NCBI GenBank assembly: GCA_042576705.1
Contig: JBHPEY010000003.1
Location: forward strand, 3,438-67,437
Direction of reading: 5' to 3'
Length of the DNA stretch: 64,000 nucleotides
From: Nanobdellota archaeon
GTDB taxonomy: Archaea > Nanobdellota > Nanobdellia > Woesearchaeales > UBA11576
Position 1 is the first letter of the stretch. Each line of letters begins with the position of its first letter. Below the pieces are notes generated by a model. The model was not told the DNA's origin and ran no database searches. It saw nothing but the letters and a program-made list of their open reading frames with translations. This document shows, piece after piece, positions 1,298-42,919 of this stretch. The translations under genes were made by a program, and so were the position numbers.

Positions 1298-1861
1298 TTA
1301 AAACTCTACCTTGACATCCTTCTTGTCTGCTTCTGAGACCTTGTACATCTCTTTCGCAGTGAGCTTCATCATGTTTGCTATGACCATGTCTGGGAAGCTC
1401 TCTATTCGGATGTTGAAGGTGTTGCAGGAGTCGTTGTAGAACTCTCTCCTGTCTGCGAGCTCGTTCTCCAGTCCTGAGATTCGCTGCTGAAGGTGCATGA
1501 AGTTCTCATTGGCCTGCAGTTTCGGATAGTTCTCTGCAACTGCGAACAATGTCTTCAGTGCGCCGGTTATCTGGTTGTCTGCTTTGGCCTTTTCCGGCAT
1601 TGATTTTGCCTTGAGGAGAGCGCTTCTTGCGTTTGTTATCTCTGTGAGGACACCTTTCTCGTGCTTCATGTAGCCTTTTACAGAGTTGATGAGTTTTGGG
1701 AGCTCGTCTGATCTCTGCTTGAGGAGGACGTTTATGTTTCCCCAGGATTTCTTTATGTTGTTCTTCAGTCTTACTAGACTGTTGTATACGCCTACAATCC
1801 ATCCTATCAGGCCTAGTAAGACTAGGATGATTACGACGGTGACTATTATTCCGACTATCAT
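1298..1861 (-). CDS. lemA: LemA family membrane protein
   Basis: N-terminal TM followed by the LemA-type helical domain (NSLVRLKN...YPKLQANENF...). Confidence 0.8.
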   Translation of the reverse strand: MIVGIIVTVVIILVLLGLIGWIVGVYNSLVRLKNNIKKSWGNINVLLKQRSDELPKLINSVKGYMKHEKGVLTEITNARSALLKAKSMPEKAKADNQITGALKTLFAVAENYPKLQANENFMHLQQRISGLENELADRREFYNDSCNTFNIRIESFPDMVIANMMKLTAKEMYKVSEADKKDVKVEF

Positions 1862-5317: not shown

Positions 5318-7099
5318 TTATCTTCTTGTGATCTTCTTCACAGCAGCTTCTATTGCTTTTGCGTCGATTTTGAACATCCTTCGTAGCTGTCCGGGCTTGC
5401 CTGATCTTGGCGTGCCCCTGACATAGAGCTGCTCGACCTTGCCGACAGCTTCAGCGACGACAGATCCTATGCCGCCGAAGTAATGGTCCTCGACTGTGAT
5501 GACTCTGTTTTTGCATTCTTTTGCGTTCCTTATGAGTGCTGCCTTGTCGACAGGTTTCACTGAATAAAGATCGATTACCCTGATGTTAATCCCTTTTTTC
5601 TTCAGGTTCCCATGCGCTTTCAATGCTTCATGCACTGTCTCTCCTGCACCGATGACCAACACCCTGTCCTTCCCGCTCCTGCGCAGGACCTTCAGTTTCC
5701 CTATCGGGAACTTCTCTGTCCTTTTGTATATGGTTGGTGTCTTCTCTCTTGTCGTCCGCAGGTATGCGAGGCCTTTGTGCCTTGCCATCTCTTTTGTGCA
5801 GTATTCTGCAGAGACTGCGTCGCAGGGATAGAGCACCACGCTGTCAGGAATCCCCAGGTACATAGATAGGTCCTCAAGACCCATCTGGCTCGGGCCGTCC
5901 TCGCCTATGCTCACTCCGGCATGGGACCCGACAATCTTGATGTTTGCCCTTGAGTATGCTGCCATGCGGATGAAATCATGCGCGCGTGTCAGGAACGTCG
6001 CGAATGTGCTGACAAAAGGCACAAATCCCTGGGTCGCGAATCCTGCAGCCATGCCGACCATGTTCTGCTCTGCGATGAAAGACTCGAAACCTCTCTGAGG
6101 GAATGTCTTGCAGAACTCGAGCGTCATTGTCGAGTTCTTGACATCACCATCGACTGCTACGATGTTGTCGTTCTTGAGGCCGAGATGTACAAGGGCTTTT
6201 CCGAATGCACCCCTTGTCGCGACCATCTCACCCTGTTGGTATCTGCTTATCGGGACATCCTTTATCTTTACAGGTGTCGGTCTGACATAGGCAACTTTTG
6301 AAGAGAGAGATATCTTTGCAGGGCCGATCCCGTCGATGGCTTGCGCAGCCTCCTCCTTGTTCAGTGTCTTCCCATGCCAGCCTTCCTTGTTCTCAATGAA
6401 GGGTATACCTTTGCCTTTGATTGTCCGCGCTATTATGGCGAAAGGCTTGCTGCTGTGCCTTGCCTGCTTCAGTGCATTGCGCAGCTCCTTGACATCATGG
6501 CCGTCGACCACTTTCGCGTTCCAGCCGAATGCCTTGAATTTTTTACTGTATGCCTGCGTGTTGTGGCCGTGCATTGTCGGCTGTGATTGGCCCAGCCTGT
6601 TGCAGTCGATAAATGCTACCAGGTTGTTGAGCCTGAAATACGCGGCGCTGTTCGCTGCTTCCCAGGTGCTGCCTTCGAACGACTCGCCGTCGCCCATCAG
6701 CACATAGATACGGTCTTTGTTCTTCTGGAGGCGCTTTGCGAGCGCCATGCCGACGCCTGCAGACAGGCCCTGGCCCAGGCTGCCTGTGGCGATCTTTATC
6801 ATCTTCATTCGCGGGGTGGGGTGGCCTTCGAGCTCGCAGTCGATCTTCCTAAGGTCCAGCAGTTCTTTTTTAGGTATTATTCCTGCTTCTGCGTAAGCTG
6901 CCCAGAGTATCGGCGCTGCATGGCCCTTTGACATTATGAACTCGTCATCCTTCTTGAGTTCGTCGAAGAAAAGAGTGCTCATGATCTCTGCGCAGGAACA
7001 GCATGACGTCGGGTGTCCTGATCCTGCGGCTGTGGTGGCTTGTATGCTGTGTATCCTTAGCCTGTTGGCCATCAGCTTAAGTGAGTCACTCTTGTCCAT
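5318..7099 (-). CDS. tkt: transketolase, single-chain short form (593 aa)
   Basis: GSGHPTS and GDG TPP-binding motifs, followed by the pyrimidine-binding and C-terminal domains. Confidence 0.9.
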   Translation of the reverse strand: MDKSDSLKLMANRLRIHSIQATTAAGSGHPTSCCSCAEIMSTLFFDELKKDDEFIMSKGHAAPILWAAYAEAGIIPKKELLDLRKIDCELEGHPTPRMKMIKIATGSLGQGLSAGVGMALAKRLQKNKDRIYVLMGDGESFEGSTWEAANSAAYFRLNNLVAFIDCNRLGQSQPTMHGHNTQAYSKKFKAFGWNAKVVDGHDVKELRNALKQARHSSKPFAIIARTIKGKGIPFIENKEGWHGKTLNKEEAAQAIDGIGPAKISLSSKVAYVRPTPVKIKDVPISRYQQGEMVATRGAFGKALVHLGLKNDNIVAVDGDVKNSTMTLEFCKTFPQRGFESFIAEQNMVGMAAGFATQGFVPFVSTFATFLTRAHDFIRMAAYSRANIKIVGSHAGVSIGEDGPSQMGLEDLSMYLGIPDSVVLYPCDAVSAEYCTKEMARHKGLAYLRTTREKTPTIYKRTEKFPIGKLKVLRRSGKDRVLVIGAGETVHEALKAHGNLKKKGINIRVIDLYSVKPVDKAALIRNAKECKNRVITVEDHYFGGIGSVVAEAVGKVEQLYVRGTPRSGKPGQLRRMFKIDAKAIEAAVKKITRR

Positions 7100-7727
7100 C
7101 TCTTTCCACCTCTTTTTTCAGCTCTGCAATCGCGGATTTTGGGTCATCAGCTTTTATTATGAATGAACCTGAGACAAAAAGATTTGCACCTGCGTCTGCG
7201 GCGAGTTTTATAGTGTCCTTGTTTATGCTGCCGTCTACTTCTATGTCGATGCCTGGCGCCAGCTTCCTCAATTCCCTGACCTTGTCCAGGGTCTCTGGCA
7301 GGAACTCTGCGCCATATGTGCCAGGATTAACTGTCATGACAAGCACCTGATCAATCCTGTCCAGGTAAGGTCTTATCAGCTCGACAGGGGTCTCTGGATT
7401 CAGGGCGAAGCCCACGCGCCTGCCTTTCTGTCTGACCATCTCGATGATCTCTGCAGGGTCATTGCAGGCCTCGATGTGCGCCAGTATCGTATCGGCTTTA
7501 TCTGCCTTGAGTTCAATCCAGTTCTTCGGATTGCTGACCATGAGATGGGCTTCGTAGTTTGCTTCTGGAAGCCTGAAATCAAAATCCAGAGAATGGTTCT
7601 TGACGAAGACGCCGTCCATGATGTCCAGCTGGAACAGGTCTGTAGCGTCCTTTACATTGTCCATCAGCTTGTCAAGCTCTTCCTGTGATGCTGCGATCAG
7701 TGAAGGCACTATCCTCTTCTCAGTCAT
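7086..7727 (-). CDS. rpe: ribulose-phosphate 3-epimerase
   Basis: DIMDGVFV and related motifs. The true start is probably MTEKRIV at 7727, overlapping the rpiB stop by 4 nt; the 5' extension in the ORF track overlaps rpiB. Confidence 0.85.
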   Translation of the reverse strand: MTEKRIVPSLIAASQEELDKLMDNVKDATDLFQLDIMDGVFVKNHSLDFDFRLPEANYEAHLMVSNPKNWIELKADKADTILAHIEACNDPAEIIEMVRQKGRRVGFALNPETPVELIRPYLDRIDQVLVMTVNPGTYGAEFLPETLDKVRELRKLAPGIDIEVDGSINKDTIKLAADAGANLFVSGSFIIKADDPKSAIAELKKEVERDGQE

Positions 7728-16444: not shown

Positions 16445-16864
16445 TTATTTTGCTGCCTTCTTCTTCAGTTTGCGCTGGTTGAATCTGATGAACTTCATCA
16501 GCTTCTCAGAGTAACGGTTCAGCTTGGAGTTCAGGTCAAGGAACCTCTCAGAAGGGATGTAGTTAAGGTCGTTGCAGAGCAGCAGAAGTGTGGTCAGCTG
16601 CTTTGTAGACACGTATGCCCGCTTTAGATGCCGCAGGTACTGTTTGCAGAGCTTGAAGCTTGCTGCTTTTGACAGGTTGATCGGCAGCTCGATCGCTGCG
16701 GATTTGAGCTCCTGCGTAATGACATTGTTCTGGTCGAAATTGTCGGATTCCCTGCAGATGTCAAGACAAAGGTTGTAACCCCCTTCCCAAACAGCCATGT
16801 TCCTGAAGGCAGATGCGCCGGAACTGGATACTTCCAGTTGTTTGGTTATTGTCACAGATCTCAT
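16445..16864 (-). CDS. four-helix-bundle protein (TIGR02436 / Avd-like family)
   Basis: C-terminal pattern AYVSTKQLTTLLLLCNDLNYIPSERFLDLNSKLNRYSEKLMKFI fits the family consensus (A.GS..E..T.L.LA..L.YI...F..L......I.KML). Confidence 0.45.
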   Translation of the reverse strand: MRSVTITKQLEVSSSGASAFRNMAVWEGGYNLCLDICRESDNFDQNNVITQELKSAAIELPINLSKAASFKLCKQYLRHLKRAYVSTKQLTTLLLLCNDLNYIPSERFLDLNSKLNRYSEKLMKFIRFNQRKLKKKAAK

Positions 16865-16992
16865 GTAGAGTATAATGTTTTGGTGATTCTTAAATATTGA
16901 TTCGGGGTTTTTTACTTAAATCTTGTATTTTTAGGGATTTGTTCATTTTTATATAAATTGTTGGGGGGTTTTTAAACACTCTTCAGCTGGGC

Positions 16993-17185
16993 GGGGTAAA
17001 TCCAAGGCCTGCTCCGCTTTTTGCTCGCTGCGCTTCGCAAAAAGCTCCGTGCGCTGCCAGGCGAAGCGCTTAATGTATTACTACATAGGGCCGCCGTCCC
17101 CGTAGGGGCCGTCCCCCCGGCGGCCTGCATATCCTTGCTGGAATGCGCTTCGCAAAGGGGGCAGCGGCGGCCTTGGATTTACCCC
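16993..17185. repeat. TIR-bounded palindromic intergenic element, copy B (193 bp)
   Basis: 17-bp perfect TIR ggggtaaatccaaggcc / ggccttggatttacccc. Internal palindromes gctccgctttttgc...gcaaaaagctccg and ggccgccgtccccgtaggggccgtccccccggcggcc. Confidence 0.6.
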
Positions 17186-17265
17186 TGGATGTTATTATTA
17201 AAGTGGGAGTGGGTCATGCGAAAGTTTTATATCATTCGCGACTATGGATTTATCTGGGTGATCAT

Positions 17266-18090
17266 ATGGAGAATAAGCTATTTTATGGAATATCGATTCT
17301 GTTTGTCATCTTTATTCTTATGCTGTCTGGCTGTGCGCCTAAGATGGTGCAGCCTGATGTGAAGGACACTACTGATACAGTGAAGAAGACAGAGACTGTG
17401 AAGGAAGAGACAACTACTGAGACAGAGACTGAAGAAGAGGAAGAAGAGACTGTTGTTGAGGAAGTAGAGGAAGAAGAAGAGGATGTGGATTATAATTTCG
17501 AGGCGCTTCCAAAGGAACAGCAGAGAAAGGTCAAGCTTGTACGTAATCTGCTTGAGGAAGCACGGGGTAGGGACGAGAATTACTTCTTCAGGTTCTCCAG
17601 TCCCAAAATACTCCAGACAGCTGTCTGGGTCAAGAGTGATGTGATCAAGCGTGAGATACGAAGGCCTTCAGAGATGGACAAGACAAAGCCATACAATATG
17701 GTGTATCTTGATACCGGAGCCTTGACTGCAAAGGGATACTGCGAGACTTCAAAGGCAAAGTGCTGGGAAGGGAAAGGACCTTTTTCAGAGAACTACAACA
17801 AATGGCTGATCAAGACTCCGAAACAATGGGTCATGGAGCTTGGGGATGAGTTCACCTTTGCGCTTGACAATAAGATTGGGGACCAGCTGTACCACATCGT
17901 TGATTTCAGGAAGGACGGCAAGACAATCCGAGTCTATGTGAATGACTACCGTGGCTGGCCTGCAAGGGTTGAGGTGTACAACAGGGAAGTCGCTCTTGAT
18001 AGCCTGCCTACGGGAAGTCCTGATGAAGAATATATCTATGATGACATGGATATCGGCGGGGTCAGCGAGGATGATGTGACGCCTGGTTAA
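17266..18090 (+). CDS. secreted lipoprotein with acidic (Glu-rich) linker
   Basis: Probable true start MENKLFYGISILFVIFILMLSGC (lipobox). The upstream extension in the track reads through the repeat element. Confidence 0.5.
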   Translation: MENKLFYGISILFVIFILMLSGCAPKMVQPDVKDTTDTVKKTETVKEETTTETETEEEEEETVVEEVEEEEEDVDYNFEALPKEQQRKVKLVRNLLEEARGRDENYFFRFSSPKILQTAVWVKSDVIKREIRRPSEMDKTKPYNMVYLDTGALTAKGYCETSKAKCWEGKGPFSENYNKWLIKTPKQWVMELGDEFTFALDNKIGDQLYHIVDFRKDGKTIRVYVNDYRGWPARVEVYNREVALDSLPTGSPDEEYIYDDMDIGGVSEDDVTPG

Positions 18091-19289: not shown

Positions 19290-22230
19290 GCGCATAGGAA
19301 GTACATAAAGAACGGTTAGTACACGCGTGCTGAACACGTCGCCGAAGCTTCGTGCTTACACACCGTGCCTATCAAACGAGTCTTTTACTCGAGTTCAAGG
19401 TGTCTCTTTTTGCGGGGGGTTTCGTGCTTAGATGCTTTCAGCACTTATCCCTGAAGGCGTAGCTGCCCTGCGTACCTTGTCAGATAACAGGTAGACCAGA
19501 GGCCTCGAGCCCCCGTTCCTCTCGTACTAAGGGGTCCTTCCACTCAGACACCAAACATTTCCAGTAGATATCAAACAAACTGCCTCACAGCGTTCTGAAC
19601 CCAGCTCACGATCCCTTTTGATGGGTGAACACCCCCACCCTTGGATGCTTCTGCACATCCAGGATAGGAAGAGCCGACATCGATGTAGCAAGCCGCGCCG
19701 TCGATAAACTCCAAGCTTTCTTGTGAAAACCTGTATGAGCTCTCGGGCGCGACAACTCTGTTATCCCCGGAGTAACTTTTCGGTCATCTCTAGCTCCCAT
19801 CAAGGAAGCATAGAGGTTCGCTAGACCAAACTTTCGTTTTTGGATTCCTCATTGACCAGAATCCAATCAGGCTGGCTTTTGCTCTTGCACTCCACGGCGG
19901 ATTTCTGACCCGCCTGAGCCAACCTTAGGGCACCATTGATAAATTTTCAACGGTGTGCCACCCCAGCCAAACTGTCCACCTGCCGCTGTCCTTGTCTCCA
20001 AGTGAGCGACGTAAGTCTAGAAGAGTGGTGTTACATTTTTGTCTATTCATGATCTGGCGACCATAACATAACGACTCCCACTTACACTATACAACAAAAC
20101 TCACGTCGCAACAACAAGCTACAGTAAAGTTTCACGGGGTCTTCGCTTCCCACTGGAAATCACTGGCCTTTGCACCAGTAAAGAGTGTTCGGGGGATTCA
20201 GTCTTGGGACAGTGAGGATCTCGTTACGCCATTCATGCAGGCCGTCATTCAAACGGCAAGGCATTTCGCTACCTTAAGAGAGTTATAGTTACTCCCGCCG
20301 TTTACCAGCTCTTAGCTCCCTTGGAAGGAAGTTTGAAGTACTGGCACTGGGCAGACGTCACCTTCTGTACACACCTTTGCAGGCTAGCAGAAAGTTAAGT
20401 TTTTGTTAAACAGTCGGACCCTCTGAGTCACTGCGCCCTATGTTTGCAGTCATGCGACTACAAGCATAGGGACCCCTTATACCGAAGATACGGGGCGAAT
20501 TTGCCGAATTCCCTAAAACTGATTAATCCCTCACACCTTAGGCTTCTCACCTAGGGGCACCTGTGCTGGTTCTGGGTATGATTGCTAAAGTTCCATTCCT
20601 GTTCCTTTTTCATGGAGTCCAGGCATTGACTGAATGGACCAAAGGCCCACTATTCCCGAGTTTATTCAACTTCTCATCATTAAGATTCTCCATTGAATTG
20701 TCTTGGTTAACACAATAGATGACTTGTGTCAGTCTAGCCAGAACCGTCAGAAACAAGACTTGTGTTGCCACGTGTACTAAAGCAGTAAAGGAATCTTAAC
20801 CTTTTTCCCTTTCCCGTGTTGCCAGTTAGGCAGACGGTTAGGATCAACTTACCCTTGACTGAACTGCATTGTCAAGGAACCCTTGCCCTTTCGGTGGTAG
20901 TGATTCTCACACTACTATGATCCTACTCTCACCAGGATCCTCATTTCTACGAGGTTCACTCCCTCTCTCGAGAAAGCTTTTGCCCTCGCAGAGCGCCTAC
21001 CTACCACAATCCTTTCGGATGTCTGAAGTATCGGTAACCTGCTTAGCCCCGTCCATTTTCGGGGCCCACATTCTTGACAAGTAAGCTGTTACGCACTTAT
21101 TATAGGGTGGCTGCTTCTAAGCCAACCTCCTCGCTGTCTGTGAATGTAAACACCCTTCACCCGTTAACACTTAGCAGGTATTTTGGGACCTTAACTTCAG
21201 TCTGGGTTGTTCCCCTCTAGCTACTCACCCTTACGACGAGTACCCGTCTCCCGGAATCTACGACGTTGAAACATTCGGAGTTGGACAGGAAACCGAGGAA
21301 TTTCTTCCCCTAAATCCCCAATCCGTATCTCTACCTTTTCAACTATCTCATCCGAGGTTTGACTACGGCCAATTTTGGTAGGAACCAGCTATCACCGTGT
21401 TCGATTGGCTTTTCACCCCTAGCCCAAAGTTAGAAGACTACTTGCCCGTAAGTTCTCTGCAGGCCTCCACGGGATTTTACTCCCGCTTCACCTTACCCTG
21501 GGTTAGATCACACGGCTTCGGGTCTGGCCCAAGTGACTCAAGGCATTTTCATACCTAGTCCCTCATTGCTTGCGGACTTATTGATTTCTCTGCGGGTACC
21601 TCTTTACAAGTTACCCTTGCCACTTAGACAAACTCCCTGGCACGTTATTCAAAACGGACGTTACAACTCCGAAGAGCCGTAACCCACTATAGCTATTAGG
21701 TTTCAAGGTCTTTTAACTCCCTGTCAAGGGTTCTTTTCAACATTCCATCACTGTACTGTACGCTATCGGACTCAAGACGTGTTTAGGGTTGGAGGTTGAT
21801 GCCCCCCATATTCGTACCAAATATCCAATTGATACTACTCTGGAACTCACTAAACCTTTCTGGTTTTCCCTTACGGGACTATCACCCTTTATCGTGCTGC
21901 TTTCCAGCAGACTTCAAGTCAACCAGCGAAGGCGAAAAAGTGGTCCAAACACCACATCTCTTACATCTTTCAATGCAAGATTCAGTTTGCCCTATACGGT
22001 TTTCAGTCGCCCTTACTCACCGCATCCCAATTGGTTTCTTTTCCTGCAGGTACTAAGACGTTTCAATTCCCTGCGTTCCCTTACCTTTCGGCATTAAAGC
22101 GAAGTCGCATTAAGGCACCCCCGGTTCAAAGCATACATGCTGCTAGCCGGGGCATATCGTAGCTTGTCACGCCCTTCGTCGGCGTCTTGAGCCAAGTCAT
22201 CCACCTAATAGCTTAAATTGTACTTCCTAT
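19290..22230 (-). rRNA. rrl: 23S rRNA (ends approximate)
   Basis: Reverse complement contains the 5'-region GCCGACGAAGGGCGTGACAAGCTACGATA and the 3'-region GCTGAAAGCATCTAAGC. Length of about 2.9 kb. Confidence 0.85.
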
Positions 22231-22502
22231 GCACGGCATCATTAACATGATGTGGGAAAAAAATGAACAGTCTGAGTGTTCTTCATGTCTTGCCCTTGAT
22301 ACAGAAAAATACATTCCTGCACTGCAGCGACCTTCTGTCGCGTGTGCCCTTATGGTGTGAATATGATGTTTTGTGAATTTGGAAAATGTGTTCTGTGGGA
22401 AAACTTCGTTTTCCCATATATAGAAAATCCCGACTTCATCGGGATTTTCAGACATTCGAAAACCAATTTAGCCGACTTCGTCGGCGAAATTGTTTTGTCG
22501 AA

Positions 22503-22646
22503 TGGACCCGTCGGGACTTTCATGATAATGCCCCTTGAGTCACCATCTTTTCGAACCCGAGGCCCCCGCCTTGCAAGGGCGGTGCTCTTTTCCGCTCCGC
22601 GCAAACCTTCGTTCGCAGACGAAGTACCAGACTGAGCTACGGGCCC
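22503..22646 (-). tRNA. tRNA-Ala(UGC) with two non-canonical introns (D-loop and T-loop 59/60), in the 16S-23S spacer
   Basis: Exons assemble to GGGCCCGUAGCUCAGUCUGGUA|GAGCACCGCCCUUGCAAGGCGGGGGCCUCGGGUUCGAA|UCCCGACGGGUCCA. Contains the G3:U70 Ala identity pair, anticodon TGC and a perfect T-stem. Confidence 0.7.
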
Positions 22647-22761: not shown

Positions 22762-24340
<1,579 letters not shown>

Positions 24341-25241: not shown

Positions 25242-25345
25242 ATTTTTTTGTCCGTGTGAATATGAAAGTTTGTCAAGAGTCAGCGACCACCACTCTATGA
25301 GATAATGGACAGCAACTCTTGACAAACTAAGTTGACCATAATAGG

Positions 25346-31017: not shown

Positions 31018-31154
31018 ATGCGCCGACTGGGCGGCGACAACCTTTGGTTGTGAGCCCGGTAGCCGTATTACTCACTACGTTCGCAATGCGCCGACCGGGC
31101 GGCGACAACCTTTGGTTGTGAGCCTGGTAGCCGTATTACTCACTACGTTCGCAA
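31018..31154. repeat. two tandem 66-bp direct repeats, each starting with a copy of the 3'-terminal 13 nt of the adjacent tRNA-Gly
   Basis: tgcgccgac(t/c)gggcggcgacaacctttggttgtgagcc(c/t)ggtagccgtattactcactacgttcgcaa occurs twice, and the third tgcgccgaccggg is the tRNA itself. Confidence 0.75.
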
Positions 31155-31225
31155 TGCGCCGACCGGGAATTGAACCCGGGCCTAAGCGTTGGCAACGCCC
31201 AATTGTACCACTCAACCACCGGCGC
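31155..31225 (-). tRNA. tRNA-Gly(GCC)
   Basis: GCGCCGGUGGUUGAGUGGUACAAUUGGGCGUUGCCAACGCUUAGGCCCGGGUUCAAUUCCCGGUCGGCGCA. Confidence 0.75.
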
Positions 31226-31339
31226 GAATTAGACAACTGAAAAATCAGATGTTAATAAAGTTTATGATGGGAGACTGTGTCTCCCATACAAAGAAAACCT
31301 CGACTCGCAAGCTCATCGGGGTTTTCGAGCATGTGAAAA

Positions 31340-31379
31340 GGCATTTAGCCGACTTTGTCGGCGAAATGCCTTTCTCTCA
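31340..31379 (-). terminator. conserved 11-bp-stem hairpin immediately 3' of tRNA-Val; the same motif follows tRNA-Ala at 22466-22494
   Basis: atttagccgactttgtcggcgaaat versus atttagccgacttcgtcggcgaaat. Confidence 0.4.
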
Positions 31380-31452
31380 TGGGCCTGCCCGGACTCGAAC
31401 CGGGGATCAATGCCGTGTAAGGGCACTGTCATAGCCACTAGACCACAAGCCC
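31380..31452 (-). tRNA. tRNA-Val(UAC)
   Basis: GGGCUUGUGGUCUAGUGGCUAUGACAGUGCCCUUACACGGCAUUGAUCCCCGGUUCGAGUCCGGGCAGGCCCA. Confidence 0.8.
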
Positions 31453-32711: not shown

Positions 32712-32726
32712 GTGATTTCTTCTTGT

Positions 32727-32918
32727 GGAGCAAATCCGACACACTACTCCGCTTTTGCTTCACTGCGTTACGCAAAAGCTCCGTCAGCCGCCAGGCTCCG
32801 CGCTGTTCTTCTTTTCCTTATGATGCCGCACCCCCGTAGGGGGCGTCCCCCCGCGGCATCCATACCATTCACTTATAGGCGCTACGCGAAGGGCGGCTAC
32901 GGTGTCGGATCTGCTCCT
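32727..32918. repeat. TIR-bounded palindromic intergenic element, copy C (192 bp)
   Basis: TIR ggagcaaatccgacac / gtgtcggatctgctcc with one mismatch. Internal motifs homologous to copy B, with compensatory substitutions. Confidence 0.6.
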
Positions 32919-33008
32919 GGAGCTATTTCTGGAGTTAGTATTATTAGTGATGTAATGGTGGTTTCTTCTTCATAAGCTTTATATACTACTAATCCTCTGT
33001 TTTAAGGC

Positions 33009-35129
33009 ATGGCAAAGAAAGAGGGTAGAAAGAGTGCTAGAAGGGGTGCTCGAAAGAGTGTTCAGAAGAGTTCTGGAAAAGCTAAAGTGGTTGCTCGTTC
33101 TCAGAAAGCTGAAGCTTCTGCTATGTCGCATGCCCGAGTTGTTGAGCCTGATCCTGAGGTCAAGAGGAAACGGGAGGCTGAGAAGAAGGCTGCTGCTAAG
33201 TTGGCTAAGGATGAGGCTGCTGGTAAGAAGCCTGTGATGAAGGGGTCGCCCAGTACAATGTTCTCTAAGCTCAAGGATACCGGCGAGATAGATGTGTCCA
33301 AGAGGATAGTCGATCAGGTCATTGGCCAAGAGGCAGGTGTCAATCTCATCCGCAAGGCGGCGCTTCAGAGACGGCACGTGTTTTTGATCGGTGAGCCTGG
33401 GACAGGTAAGTCCATGCTTGGCCTTGCGTTGGCAGAGCTGTTGCCTAAGGAGAAGCTGCAGGATATCATATCTTTTCCTAATCCTAATGATGAGAACCAG
33501 CCAGTGATCAGGACAGTGACTGGTGGAGAAGGCCGCGAGCTTGTGAGCAAGGCACGTGTCGATTCCATGTCCATGTTCAAGAACCAGAATATATTCCTTT
33601 TCATACTCGCGATTGTCGCGATGATCGCTCCATGGTGGGTGCGGTCATACTATAAATCAGACATCATGTTCGCGGCGTTCTTCCTTGGAGGGATGATGTT
33701 CCTTGCGGCGTTTGTCATCTTCATCAATCTCGGACGAAGAGGACAGATGGGCAAGGACGGCGGAGCGCCGAAAGTGATAGTTGACAACTTCAAGAAAGAG
33801 CAGGCCGCATTCCTGGATGCTACAGGTGCGCATGCAGGCGCGCTTCTTGGTGATGTACTGCACGACCCGTTCCAGAGCGGTGGGTTGGGGACACCGGCGC
33901 ACGAAAGAGTTGTCGCTGGAATGATACACAAGGCCAACAAAGGAGTGCTGTTCATCGATGAGATAGCTACACTGCAGCCGCATACCCAGCAGGAATTGCT
34001 GTCGGCTCTGCAGGAGCGCAAGTATTCTATTACAGGGCAGTCTGAGAGGAGCGCTGGTGCGATGGTGCGTACTGAGCCAGTGCCGTGTGATTTCATCCTT
34101 GTCGCTGCAGGGAATCTTGAGACGGTCAAGAAGATGCATCCTGCATTGCGCTCGAGGATACGAGGTTATGGTTATGAGGTATACATGAATGAGACCATGC
34201 CAGACACTGCAGAGAACCGCTGGAAGATTGCATTGTTTGTCGCGCAGGAGGTCATCAAGGACCAGAAGATACCGCATTTCTCAAAAGAGGCAGTCGAGGA
34301 GATAATCGAGGAAGGCAAGAGACGGGCGAACCGGAAGAAGCATCTCACACTCCGACTCAGGGATCTCGGCGGACTCATACGCGCTGCAGGAGACCTTGCG
34401 ATAGAGAAGAAATCAAAGATTGTCGAACGCGAGCACGTAATCGGCGCGAAGAAGATTGCCAGATCTCTCGAACAGCAGATAGCAGACAAGTTCATAGACC
34501 GGAAGAAGGAATACGAGGTCATCATCACAGAAGGAAGGCTGGTCGGCAGGGTCAACGGGCTCGCGGTGATAGGTGGCGAGGCATCATACTCAGGGATTAT
34601 ACTGCCTATCGAAGCACAGGTCACACCGGGCGGAAAAGAGAAGGAGTTCGTTGCTACAGGAAAGCTCGGTGAGATTGCCAAGGAAGCAGTGAAGAATGTC
34701 TCTGCGATAATAAAGAAATACTTTGGCGAGGACATCAAGGCGTATGATGTGTATGTCCAGTTCCTGCAGACCTATGAAGGTGTGGAAGGAGACTCTGCAT
34801 CCATCGCAGTAGCTACATCCATAATATCCGCGCTCAAGAAGATCCCTGTGAAGCAGGATACTGCAATGACAGGCTCGTTGTCTGTGCGTGGTGAAGTATT
34901 ACCTGTCGGGGGAGTATCTGCGAAGGTCGAGGCGGCTATTGAAGCAGGGGTCAAACAAGTGATAGTCCCAAAATCTAATCTTCAGGATATTGTCATCTCA
35001 AAAGACAAGCTGGGTAAGATAAAGATTATCCCTGTGGAGACAATCTCGCAGGTGCTCAAGGAAGCGCTTGACTTCAAAGGCAAACAAAGCCTACTCAAGA
35101 CAATCAAGAATATCAACGGCAATGATTAA
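33009..35129 (+). CDS. lonB: archaeal membrane-bound Lon protease (LonB) with about 95-aa Lys/Ala-rich N-terminal extension
   Basis: Walker [11 protein letters not shown] insertion, and proteolytic domain with DSASIAVA Ser and a Lys dyad. Confidence 0.9.
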
Positions 35130-38638: not shown

Positions 38639-39056
38639 TTGAGTTGAAGGGCTTTTTCTTTGCTGCCTGCTCTGCTGAGACCACGATGTCTGATTCTGAA
38701 ACTGTCTGGCTATCGTTCTGGCCGAAGGCCTTCTCTTTTGATATCGTTTCTTTTACCTGAAGCGCAGCGCGCACATATCAGAATTCCTGAAGCGCGCGAA
38801 GAAACTACTTCAGCGCCTTTCTGTGAGGGGGTCGCCGTAGCAACACTTAGGGCAAATCCTATGATGATGCCGCGCTCTGCAAGCACGGCATACGGATTTG
38901 CTACTATTCTAGTTTCGCCGTTTCCCACCCGCCTCCCCTAAGGTGGCGACTCCCTCTATGGTGGAAGGGCGAAAAATATCCCTGCCTGTGTAATGTGTTT
39001 ATAAGTTAGATTTGCTGCTGGAAATCATTTTTTTCTTCGTAAGGTTTAAATATTAC

Positions 39057-42749: not shown

Positions 42750-42919
42750 TTTTGAGAGGCACAGACGGTCTCAGCAGCAAAACTTTCATGGCGGCAACTG
42801 ACGCTAATCTGTCTAGAACAGCTCTCTAATGCCTTAGATTTGTATTCTATGCTATCAAAACCTTTAAATACGCTCAGGGGTTGTGTGTCGGGTATTAACC
42901 TTTAAAGGAGGATGGTCAT

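Follow-up and report, generated by a model that had tools for sequence, protein, structure and literature searches.

Short GC-rich palindromes recur between the genes of the 64-kb stretch of DNA analysed here (the window), and the question is whether they are mobile elements or structured RNAs. The initial annotation allowed both, a MITE family or a structured RNA family. Our data indicate that the 110-210-nt GC-rich elements of the window are a real, previously undescribed family with a conserved three-armed fold. The family is present in several genomes, its members behave like insertions, and their closing stem covaries. It does not have the character of a classical MITE, and no evidence for an RNA gene was obtained. 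A literature search on DPANN MITEs, Woesearchaeota non-coding RNAs, archaeal REPIN/RAYT systems and the element motif returned no description of this element.

The window has a GC content of about 48%. Its LonB protein (33009-35129) is 100% identical to an NCBI protein, annotated there with a shorter start and labelled Nanoarchaeota archaeon, and has next-best homologues that are 79-87% identical and labelled Woesearchaeota or Nanoarchaeota. Judged from its sequence, the DNA is that of a DPANN archaeon of Woesearchaeota type. The Rfam comparison suggested by the initial annotation matched no family to the elements. A gathering scan of the window with Rfam release 15 returned only archaeal 23S (19296-22228) and 16S (22764-24340) rRNA genes on the minus strand and three tRNAs, and E-value scans of copies B and C, described below, gave only chance matches of 11-15 bits. 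Other features near the RNA genes were also noted. The 16S match is 1577 nt long against a model of 1478 positions, which suggests an insertion or expansion of about 100 nt. A GC-rich unit of 68 nt occupies 31018-31153 as two tandem copies that are 97% identical, directly beside tRNA-Gly (31155-31225, minus strand); ARAGORN called no tRNA in this unit. An 83-nt repeat (76% identity) is common to 22436-22518 in the 16S-23S spacer and to 31313-31395 in the trailer or 3' end of tRNA-Val. Within it, at 31337-31373, is a near-perfect hairpin of 17 nt, and the repeat could represent either a tRNA remnant or a processing stem common to both sites. Next to tRNA-Glu, at 25267-25328, the arms AGTTTGTCAAGAGT / ACTCTTGACAAACT form a perfect inverted repeat of 14 nt around a loop of 34 nt.

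Three full copies, each bounded by terminal inverted repeats of 15-17 bp, had been proposed for the window, and all three were found on the plus strand. Copy A (1907-2025, about 119 nt) is flanked by two minus-strand genes, one LemA-like (1298-1861) and one with a GIDE domain (2071-2832). Copy B (16993-17185, 193 nt) lies between divergent genes at 16445-16864 (minus strand) and 17266-18090 (plus strand), the second of which encodes a lipoprotein-like product. The open reading frame at 16445-16864, near the rRNA operon, matches the Pfam family 23S_rRNA_IVP (E = 3e-11), a family of four-helix-bundle proteins. Copy C (191 nt) begins at 32727 and ends at 32917; upstream of it is the scpA stop codon (32711) and downstream the LonB promoter (TATA box at 32978, ATG at 33009). 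The copies are intergenic as had been claimed, but no 3' flank holds copy B, which lies between divergent genes. The GC content is 57-63% in the copies and 31-43% in their flanks; for copy B the values are 0.63 against 0.31-0.35. Perfect 15-mer inverted repeats with a spacer of 40-260 nt occur in the window only in copies A and B, where a first-order Markov model of the window predicts 0.01 by chance. The internal palindrome said to be common to all copies is present in A, B and C as the hairpin CTCCGCTTTT(T)GC...GC(A)AAAAGCTCCG. It was found nowhere else in the window, even with two mismatches per half, and a covariance model (R1, see below) run with filters off gave no further copies. The second shared motif of the initial annotation, a GC-rich hairpin CCCCGTAGGGG(C/G)CGTCCCCCC, did not hold for all copies; it is identical in B and C and absent from A. 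Mechanically called reading frames cross copies A, B and C (1686-2057, 16972-17130, 17021-17362 and 32712-32975). They are spurious, as had been suspected, and mis-annotation is possible at such places.

Two partial copies had also been proposed, and each was confirmed in part. The match placed at 42752-42785 exists, but it is limited to 27 nt (fragment D, 42756-42782, plus strand) and matches only the 3' part of copy A, namely the 3' strand of the rod and the 3' arm of the closing stem, at 89%. Fragment D lies directly 3' of the ftsY stop codon and is probably the remnant of an internally deleted copy. The region 38849-38976 proved to be composite. Its first part, fragment or variant E (38850-38901, plus strand), has a closing stem, GGGCAAATCC / GGATTTGC, that resembles those of B and C, and a hairpin, TGATGATGCCGCG...CACGGCAT, similar to the apical stem of C. 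E has neither the side hairpin nor the rod of the full copies. The second part, at 38913-38976, is a GC-rich hairpin (TTTCGCC...GGCGAAA) that follows E directly but is unrelated to it; the spacer of relatives has neither. The density of elements in the 64-kb window is therefore three full and two partial copies.

Homology between copies B and C extends over about 200 nt (70% identity, E = 2e-22), and both fold more stably than dinucleotide shuffles (z = -3.8 for B and -5.4 for C). Covariation between the two that preserves pairing had been read from their hairpin arms, and the alignment bears this out. At least 8 of 46 predicted pairs were changed on both sides and none was broken; 1 of 500 shuffles reached this result and slid controls gave 0. 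The count of eight is a lower bound because the apical arms were misaligned by MAFFT. Read directly from the sequence, these arms are GGCCGCCG/CGGCGGCC in B and GATGCCGC/GCGGCATC in C, and would add further compensated pairs.

Copies beyond the window, for which the initial annotation had proposed a search, were found with the same architecture in five other bins or contigs. The side-hairpin (P2) motif was searched in a genome collection and then in a metagenome collection, and both gave the full architecture. These copies come from two contigs of a Nanoarchaeota bin (L004 and L014/L027), an unclassified archaeon (L007), a Woesearchaeota bin (L012), "Euryarchaeota SM23-78" (L013/L016) and a sediment metagenome contig (L018). 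Together with the window, nine copies from six genome bins or metagenome contigs share one layout and score 24-71 bits with R1, which was built from the aligned cores. Copies outside the window score 31-71 bits and window copies 28-49 bits (A 49, B 27.7 and C 37.8). R1 also found a further variant, L027b, in which P2 is shortened to GCUUGC/GCAAGC.

The nine folded copies have a single three-way-junction architecture, P1/J12/P2/P3. P1 is a variable closing stem of 9-17 bp and corresponds to the terminal inverted repeat of the initial annotation. It is followed by a single-stranded junction of 6-10 nt that ends in CUCC, usually as CUACUCC. P2 is an invariant side hairpin, GCUUUUGC-loop-GCAAAAGC, separated from P3 by one U. 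The rod P3 begins with CCG...GCC on its 5' side and ends with GGC...CGG on its 3' side, directly before the 3' arm of P1. Because P1 abuts P3 directly, the two form one long rod and P2 is a branch. P1 of copy A is formed by 1907-1921 and 2011-2025 (15 nt, 100% complementary), followed by the junction strand CCTCTACTCC (1922-1931), P2 (1932-1952) and P3 with a simple hairpin extension (1954-2009). Copy B has P1 at 16993-17009 and 17169-17185 (17 nt, 100% complementary), P2 at 17016-17045 and the apical motif of the P3/P4 rod, CCCCGTAGGGGCCGTCCCCCC, at 17098-17118. The corresponding parts of copy C are P1 at 32727-32742 and 32902-32917 (16 nt, 94% complementary), P2 at 32751-32779 and the apical motif CCCCGTAGGGGGCGTCCCCCC at 32832-32852. 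The copies differ in how P3 ends. It is capped by a simple hairpin in the small copies (A, L012, L016 and L018; 112-119 nt). Additional helices are present in the large copies. In B, C, L027a and L027b (191-212 nt) these include an apical hairpin of conserved sequence, CCCCG(U/G)A(G/U)GGGG, with a run of C behind it; the apical module is CCCCGNAGGGG. The other large copies, L004 (171 nt) and L007a (169 nt), each have a different extended interior, which lacks the conserved apical motif. Decayed or modular forms are also found, namely D, E, the variant in L052, and L007b, which consists of P3 and the apical module only. The family is therefore modular and leaves decayed or partial copies.

The P2 pattern also matched bacterial and viral sequences. 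These were not counted as family members since they scored only 13-25 bits with R1, mostly from the enforced motif, and L001-L003, L005, L006, L008-L011, L017, L019-L026, L028-L034 and L040-L047 were left out. The bacterial sites may be chance matches of a palindromic pattern. Non-coding ones occur in L017, L021 and L030, in L019, L024 and L026, and in L031; one bacterial site is upstream of a MobV-like relaxase gene and one directly follows a tRNA 3' end. Three marine contigs with the pattern are identical up to ...GCGGCGTTA and diverge beyond it, like a cassette or attachment boundary. Two IMG/VR viral contigs, L044 (about 1400-1560, minus strand) and L045 (about 7050-7150, plus strand), have GCTCCGCTTGCTTCCGCAAGCTCCG within a three-way fold whose closing stem covaries (GGCTATGGTG/CACCATAGC against GGCTGTACG/CGTACAGCC). 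Two reading frames, unrelated but for a common ending APLASASSDPN, have 3' ends that overlap the motif, and an Rfam scan of a viral look-alike gave no match. A relation of these viral folds to the archaeal family is possible.

The distribution of conservation along the element bears on the first of the possible identities, a classical MITE, that is, an internally deleted derivative of an IS with a DDE transposase, moved through its terminal inverted repeats. The elements are short, multi-copy, bounded by inverted repeats and have no open reading frame, and their presence is polymorphic between genomes, all as expected of a MITE. Several of them, including unrelated ones in relatives, also have the ends GCAG...CTGC. 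Conservation, however, is found in the wrong place. The core alignment has 32 invariant columns, four of which are an artificial GAAA linker closing P3, and all lie in the interior (the junction strand, P2 and both ends of P3). In P1, by contrast, all ten pairs were changed on both sides between copies, 94.7% of cells remained paired and none of 500 shuffles reached the covariation score, although P1 was picked in each copy by complementarity, which inflates the count. An inverted repeat of at least 9 bp is present at a constant position relative to the core in all nine copies. The claim that the ends vary and the interior is conserved was thus upheld, and it is clearest in L016 and L018, which have nearly identical interiors and unrelated ends. 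A Pfam scan of ten reading frames of the window, beside the copies or of unassigned function, found no transposase, HUH nuclease or reverse transcriptase. Because the ends are the least conserved part and the L016 and L018 interiors are nearly identical with unrelated ends, we consider a classical MITE very improbable. Two other explanations of P1 were considered. A target palindrome that existed before insertion found no support, since B, C, E and L027b have one P1 sequence in common although their loci and genomes differ, and another sequence is common to A and D. A bulge-helix-bulge processing motif was rejected, as the stems are perfect duplexes.

Comparison with related genomes showed that the elements behave as insertions into intergenic spacers, present in one genome and absent from another. 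They typically lie just 3' of a stop codon or beside a neighbour's promoter, in either orientation. The gene order around copy C is kept in relatives (ScpA, LonB, Zn-ribbon protein, TsaD, RelA/SpoT, eIF6, prefoldin and FtsY), and so is the LonB promoter, CTTTATATACTACTAATC. L035 and L038, with a LonB that is 82-86% identical and conserved synteny, have no copy C upstream of this promoter. An extra gene separates scpA from LonB in L036 and L048, and neither spacer contains C. R1 found no copy in about 90 kb from the closest relatives. At the site of E, the spacer between RelA and the next gene is about 75 nt in relatives and about 210 nt in the window. The site of D is occupied in relatives by other sequence or by a different element bounded by inverted repeats. 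Related Woesearchaeota contigs have other families of 120-260-nt GC-rich elements with inverted-repeat ends of 10-16 bp in similar spacers, after ftsY and upstream of S17e (L038, 10810-10959; L049, 6513-6773; L054, 9058-9299; L056, 1167-1288).

Two sites outside the window were informative about the history of single copies. In L050 a PD-(D/E)XK nuclease gene is followed by L027a, a 212-nt copy with about 28 extra bases, located after the nuclease stop codon and before the ribosome-binding site of the gene that comes next. Measured from stop to start codon, this spacer has 13 nt in L052, whose nuclease is 87% identical, and 27 nt in L054, where the identity is 72%. Since both outgroup states agree, L027a is an insertion of about 240 nt in the L050 lineage. 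The insert falls between ...GGTGA and TCGAAAG..., with at most a 5-nt CTTTC repeat, and the flanks are too diverged for certainty (87% at the protein level). No clean target-site duplication was evident in this comparison, in which the best filled and empty pair is 87% identical at the flanking protein; this may also speak against a MITE. The second site lies upstream of the S17e promoter, between the conserved flanks TGTGGCCACGCCTTCA and TG(G/T)TTGCAGTAATCTTTATATAATAGTGG, and its occupants differ. It holds L027b in L050, a degenerate variant of the large type in L052, and an unrelated 122-nt element bounded by inverted repeats in L054 (two in tandem) and L056 (one). The flank of L027b beside the promoter of the divergent neighbour is nearly identical in L052 and similar in L007, which carries L007b. 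The elements of L050, L052 and L007 at one site may descend vertically from one old insertion. If so, this would mean long-term retention rather than turnover. An integron attC site was rejected as the identity of the element, as the ends have no R''/R' cores (RYYYAAC / GTTRRRY) and the neighbours are housekeeping genes in conserved synteny. A retron msr-msd was rejected likewise, because the genes downstream of A, B and C encode GIDE-domain, lipoprotein-like and LonB proteins and no reverse transcriptase.

Conserved pairing raises the question of whether the elements act as RNA. One possibility is that they are independently transcribed, trans-acting structured small RNAs, for example the RNA part of an RNP. 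In such an RNA the junction and P2 would be the protein-binding part. P1 would serve for processing or closure, its pairs being free to covary, and the extension of P3 would vary as a module. Conserved loops and a conserved junction with covarying stems across distant lineages are the classic signature of a functional RNA, and P2 and the base of P3 are invariant across such lineages. The apical motif CCCCGTAGGGG.CGTCCCCCC of B and C is found again, slightly altered, in L052 and L007, and L050 has a looser form of it. The similarity of B and C extends a few bases beyond P1 into a U-rich tail. Promoters in this lineage have TTTAWATA about 31 nt before a leaderless ATG, and 45 nt upstream of copy B lies a consensus TATA box that is not required by any protein-coding gene. 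However, B is the only copy with such a box in sense orientation, and the box is palindromic. Copy C begins 16 nt after a stop codon and has no promoter of its own. Taken over all copies, independent transcription is thus not generally supported. The genes on both sides of A, and likewise of L027a, run in the opposite direction to the copy. In every copy the two strands fold about as well as each other, and G·U accounts for about 4% of pairs on each, with no excess on the proposed sense strand; P1 has no one-sided wobble intermediates. Further points against such RNAs are the absence of copies from the fetched regions of the closest relatives, the existence of truncated copies and the lack of an Rfam match. 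We therefore regard independently transcribed small RNAs as unlikely, if still the strongest of the RNA-based alternatives. An essential RNA gene is also unlikely, because the occurrence of copies is polymorphic and patchy, their orientation varies and truncation is frequent. Identity with SRP RNA or RNase P RNA was rejected on their defining features or for lack of a model match. Equal folding of both strands, rare G·U pairs and mixed orientation make selection on RNA indistinguishable from selection on single-stranded DNA, and pairing could be selected on a transcript or on a DNA strand.

The elements might instead be cis-acting parts of the flanking mRNAs, such as an intercistronic or 3'-UTR stabiliser, a processing site, or a 5' leader of translation-related genes. 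REP and ERIC elements act on mRNAs in cis in bacteria. A distance of 25-70 nt separates the small copies L012, L016 and L018 from the downstream start codons of rps15, pheT and aspS, and C, D, E and L027a directly follow stop codons. On the other hand, there is no relation among the genes that follow the elements, which encode LonB, a lipoprotein-like product, S17e and a Zn-ribbon protein. The genes downstream of B, C and L027b are each served by a promoter of their own, located past the element and before the gene. Orientation is also inconsistent, with C, D, L012, L016 and L018 in the sense direction of the upstream gene and A and L027a antisense. Orthologous genes in relatives manage without the element, and a generic stabiliser role would leave the invariant sequence of P2 and the junction unexplained. 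A cis-acting role is accordingly rather improbable, somewhat more so than a trans-acting RNA. A T-box-like element at the pheT and aspS copies was rejected, as the P2 loops do not track the amino acid.

The reading we prefer, with about even confidence, is that the elements are a non-autonomous foldback interspersed repeat family of Woesearchaeota-type (DPANN) archaea that behaves like REPIN, BIME or ERIC elements. The invariant P2 hairpin and the flanking CUCCG strands would be the recognition site of a putative host-encoded protein that mobilises or binds the element. This protein may act on a folded single strand, either DNA or transcript. Recognition of a folded strand would explain why pairing is conserved rather than the sequence of the ends. 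The repeat would spread or persist through recognition of the invariant hairpin and junction, and inserted copies might be co-transcribed with their neighbours as stable hairpins, by analogy with REP and ERIC elements. Several points weigh against this reading. The Pfam scan of ten window reading frames revealed no mobilising enzyme, and the filled and empty sites compared yielded neither a clean target-site duplication nor an exact junction. The RNA-like pattern of conservation and the possible vertical descent of the elements at one site count against it as well. More tentatively, the three-way junction is possibly the handle of a new archaeal system, either a DPANN-specific class of structured non-coding RNA or the first archaeal counterpart of the REPIN-RAYT type. 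In the latter form, the element would be a long-lived, vertically inherited replicator, mobilised as folded single strands by a putative enzyme.

Protein recognition of a folded single strand is the logic of REP/REPIN-RAYT systems and of IS200/IS605 ends, which would be realised here with a different and larger architecture and in archaea. Like REP, BIME and REPIN sequences, the elements are short extragenic palindromic units in high copy number, located after stop codons or between operon genes. Sites have a modular or mosaic composition, presence varies between related genomes, and the hairpin is kept by matched changes. As in REP systems, a hairpin with a short conserved single-stranded tag would be recognised rather than terminal repeats. 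REP systems have no target-site duplication, and no clear one was found here. REP (20-40 nt) and REPIN (about 100 nt) sequences, however, are simple hairpins, whereas the present elements have a three-way junction with an invariant side hairpin and reach 212 nt. The 5' GTAG/CGTC tag of REP sequences is not found in the REP position; CUAC is 5' of P2, and GTAG is 3' of the hairpin on the other strand. To our knowledge, RAYTs have been described only in bacteria, and no RAYT-like gene was seen among the ten window reading frames scanned with Pfam.

The ERIC (IRU) and Correia elements are similar in that they are imperfect palindromes of 100-150 nt, bounded by inverted repeats, in co-transcribed intergenic DNA, with insertion sites that vary between species and with internally deleted or extended variants. 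Selection acting on the RNA has been put forward as the reason why their secondary structure is conserved. They show no sequence similarity to the present family, are bacterial (enterobacteria and Neisseria, respectively) and have conserved ends and TA duplications, unlike the variable ends and conserved internal junction and hairpin found here. Archaeal MITEs of Sulfolobus and haloarchaea, and the PATEs derived from IS200/IS605, are likewise non-autonomous, multi-copy archaeal elements without open reading frames. PATEs resemble our family further in depending on hairpins rather than terminal repeats, and they leave no target-site duplication, of which no clear case was found here either. Classical archaeal MITEs share their ends with a resident IS. 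PATEs have subterminal hairpins at both ends without a closing inverted repeat and insert beside a fixed tetra- or pentanucleotide. None of these traits was seen in our elements. The GC clusters of yeast mitochondria are GC-rich palindromic mobile elements in AT-richer intergenic DNA and form families by core motif. They are organellar simple hairpins of 30-50 nt with no relation in sequence or architecture, and the likeness is one of analogy only.

DPANN archaea have very small genomes, and we know of few reports on their non-coding DNA. A conserved, structured, multi-copy mobile element would mean that repeats of a selfish or regulatory kind are active, or were until recently, even in genomes as reduced as these. 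The covariance model gives a handle for annotating spurious reading frames, several of which cross copies. The element also raises the question of which protein recognises the invariant hairpin, and the interest would be wider if this were a new single-strand-specific enzyme or an RNP. If the elements are merely tolerated hairpin repeats, the result is a useful annotation of ordinary biology. Compared with the known systems, the element belongs among the structured intergenic repeats, and its interest lies mainly in its conservation across DPANN lineages and in the putative protein that recognises it.
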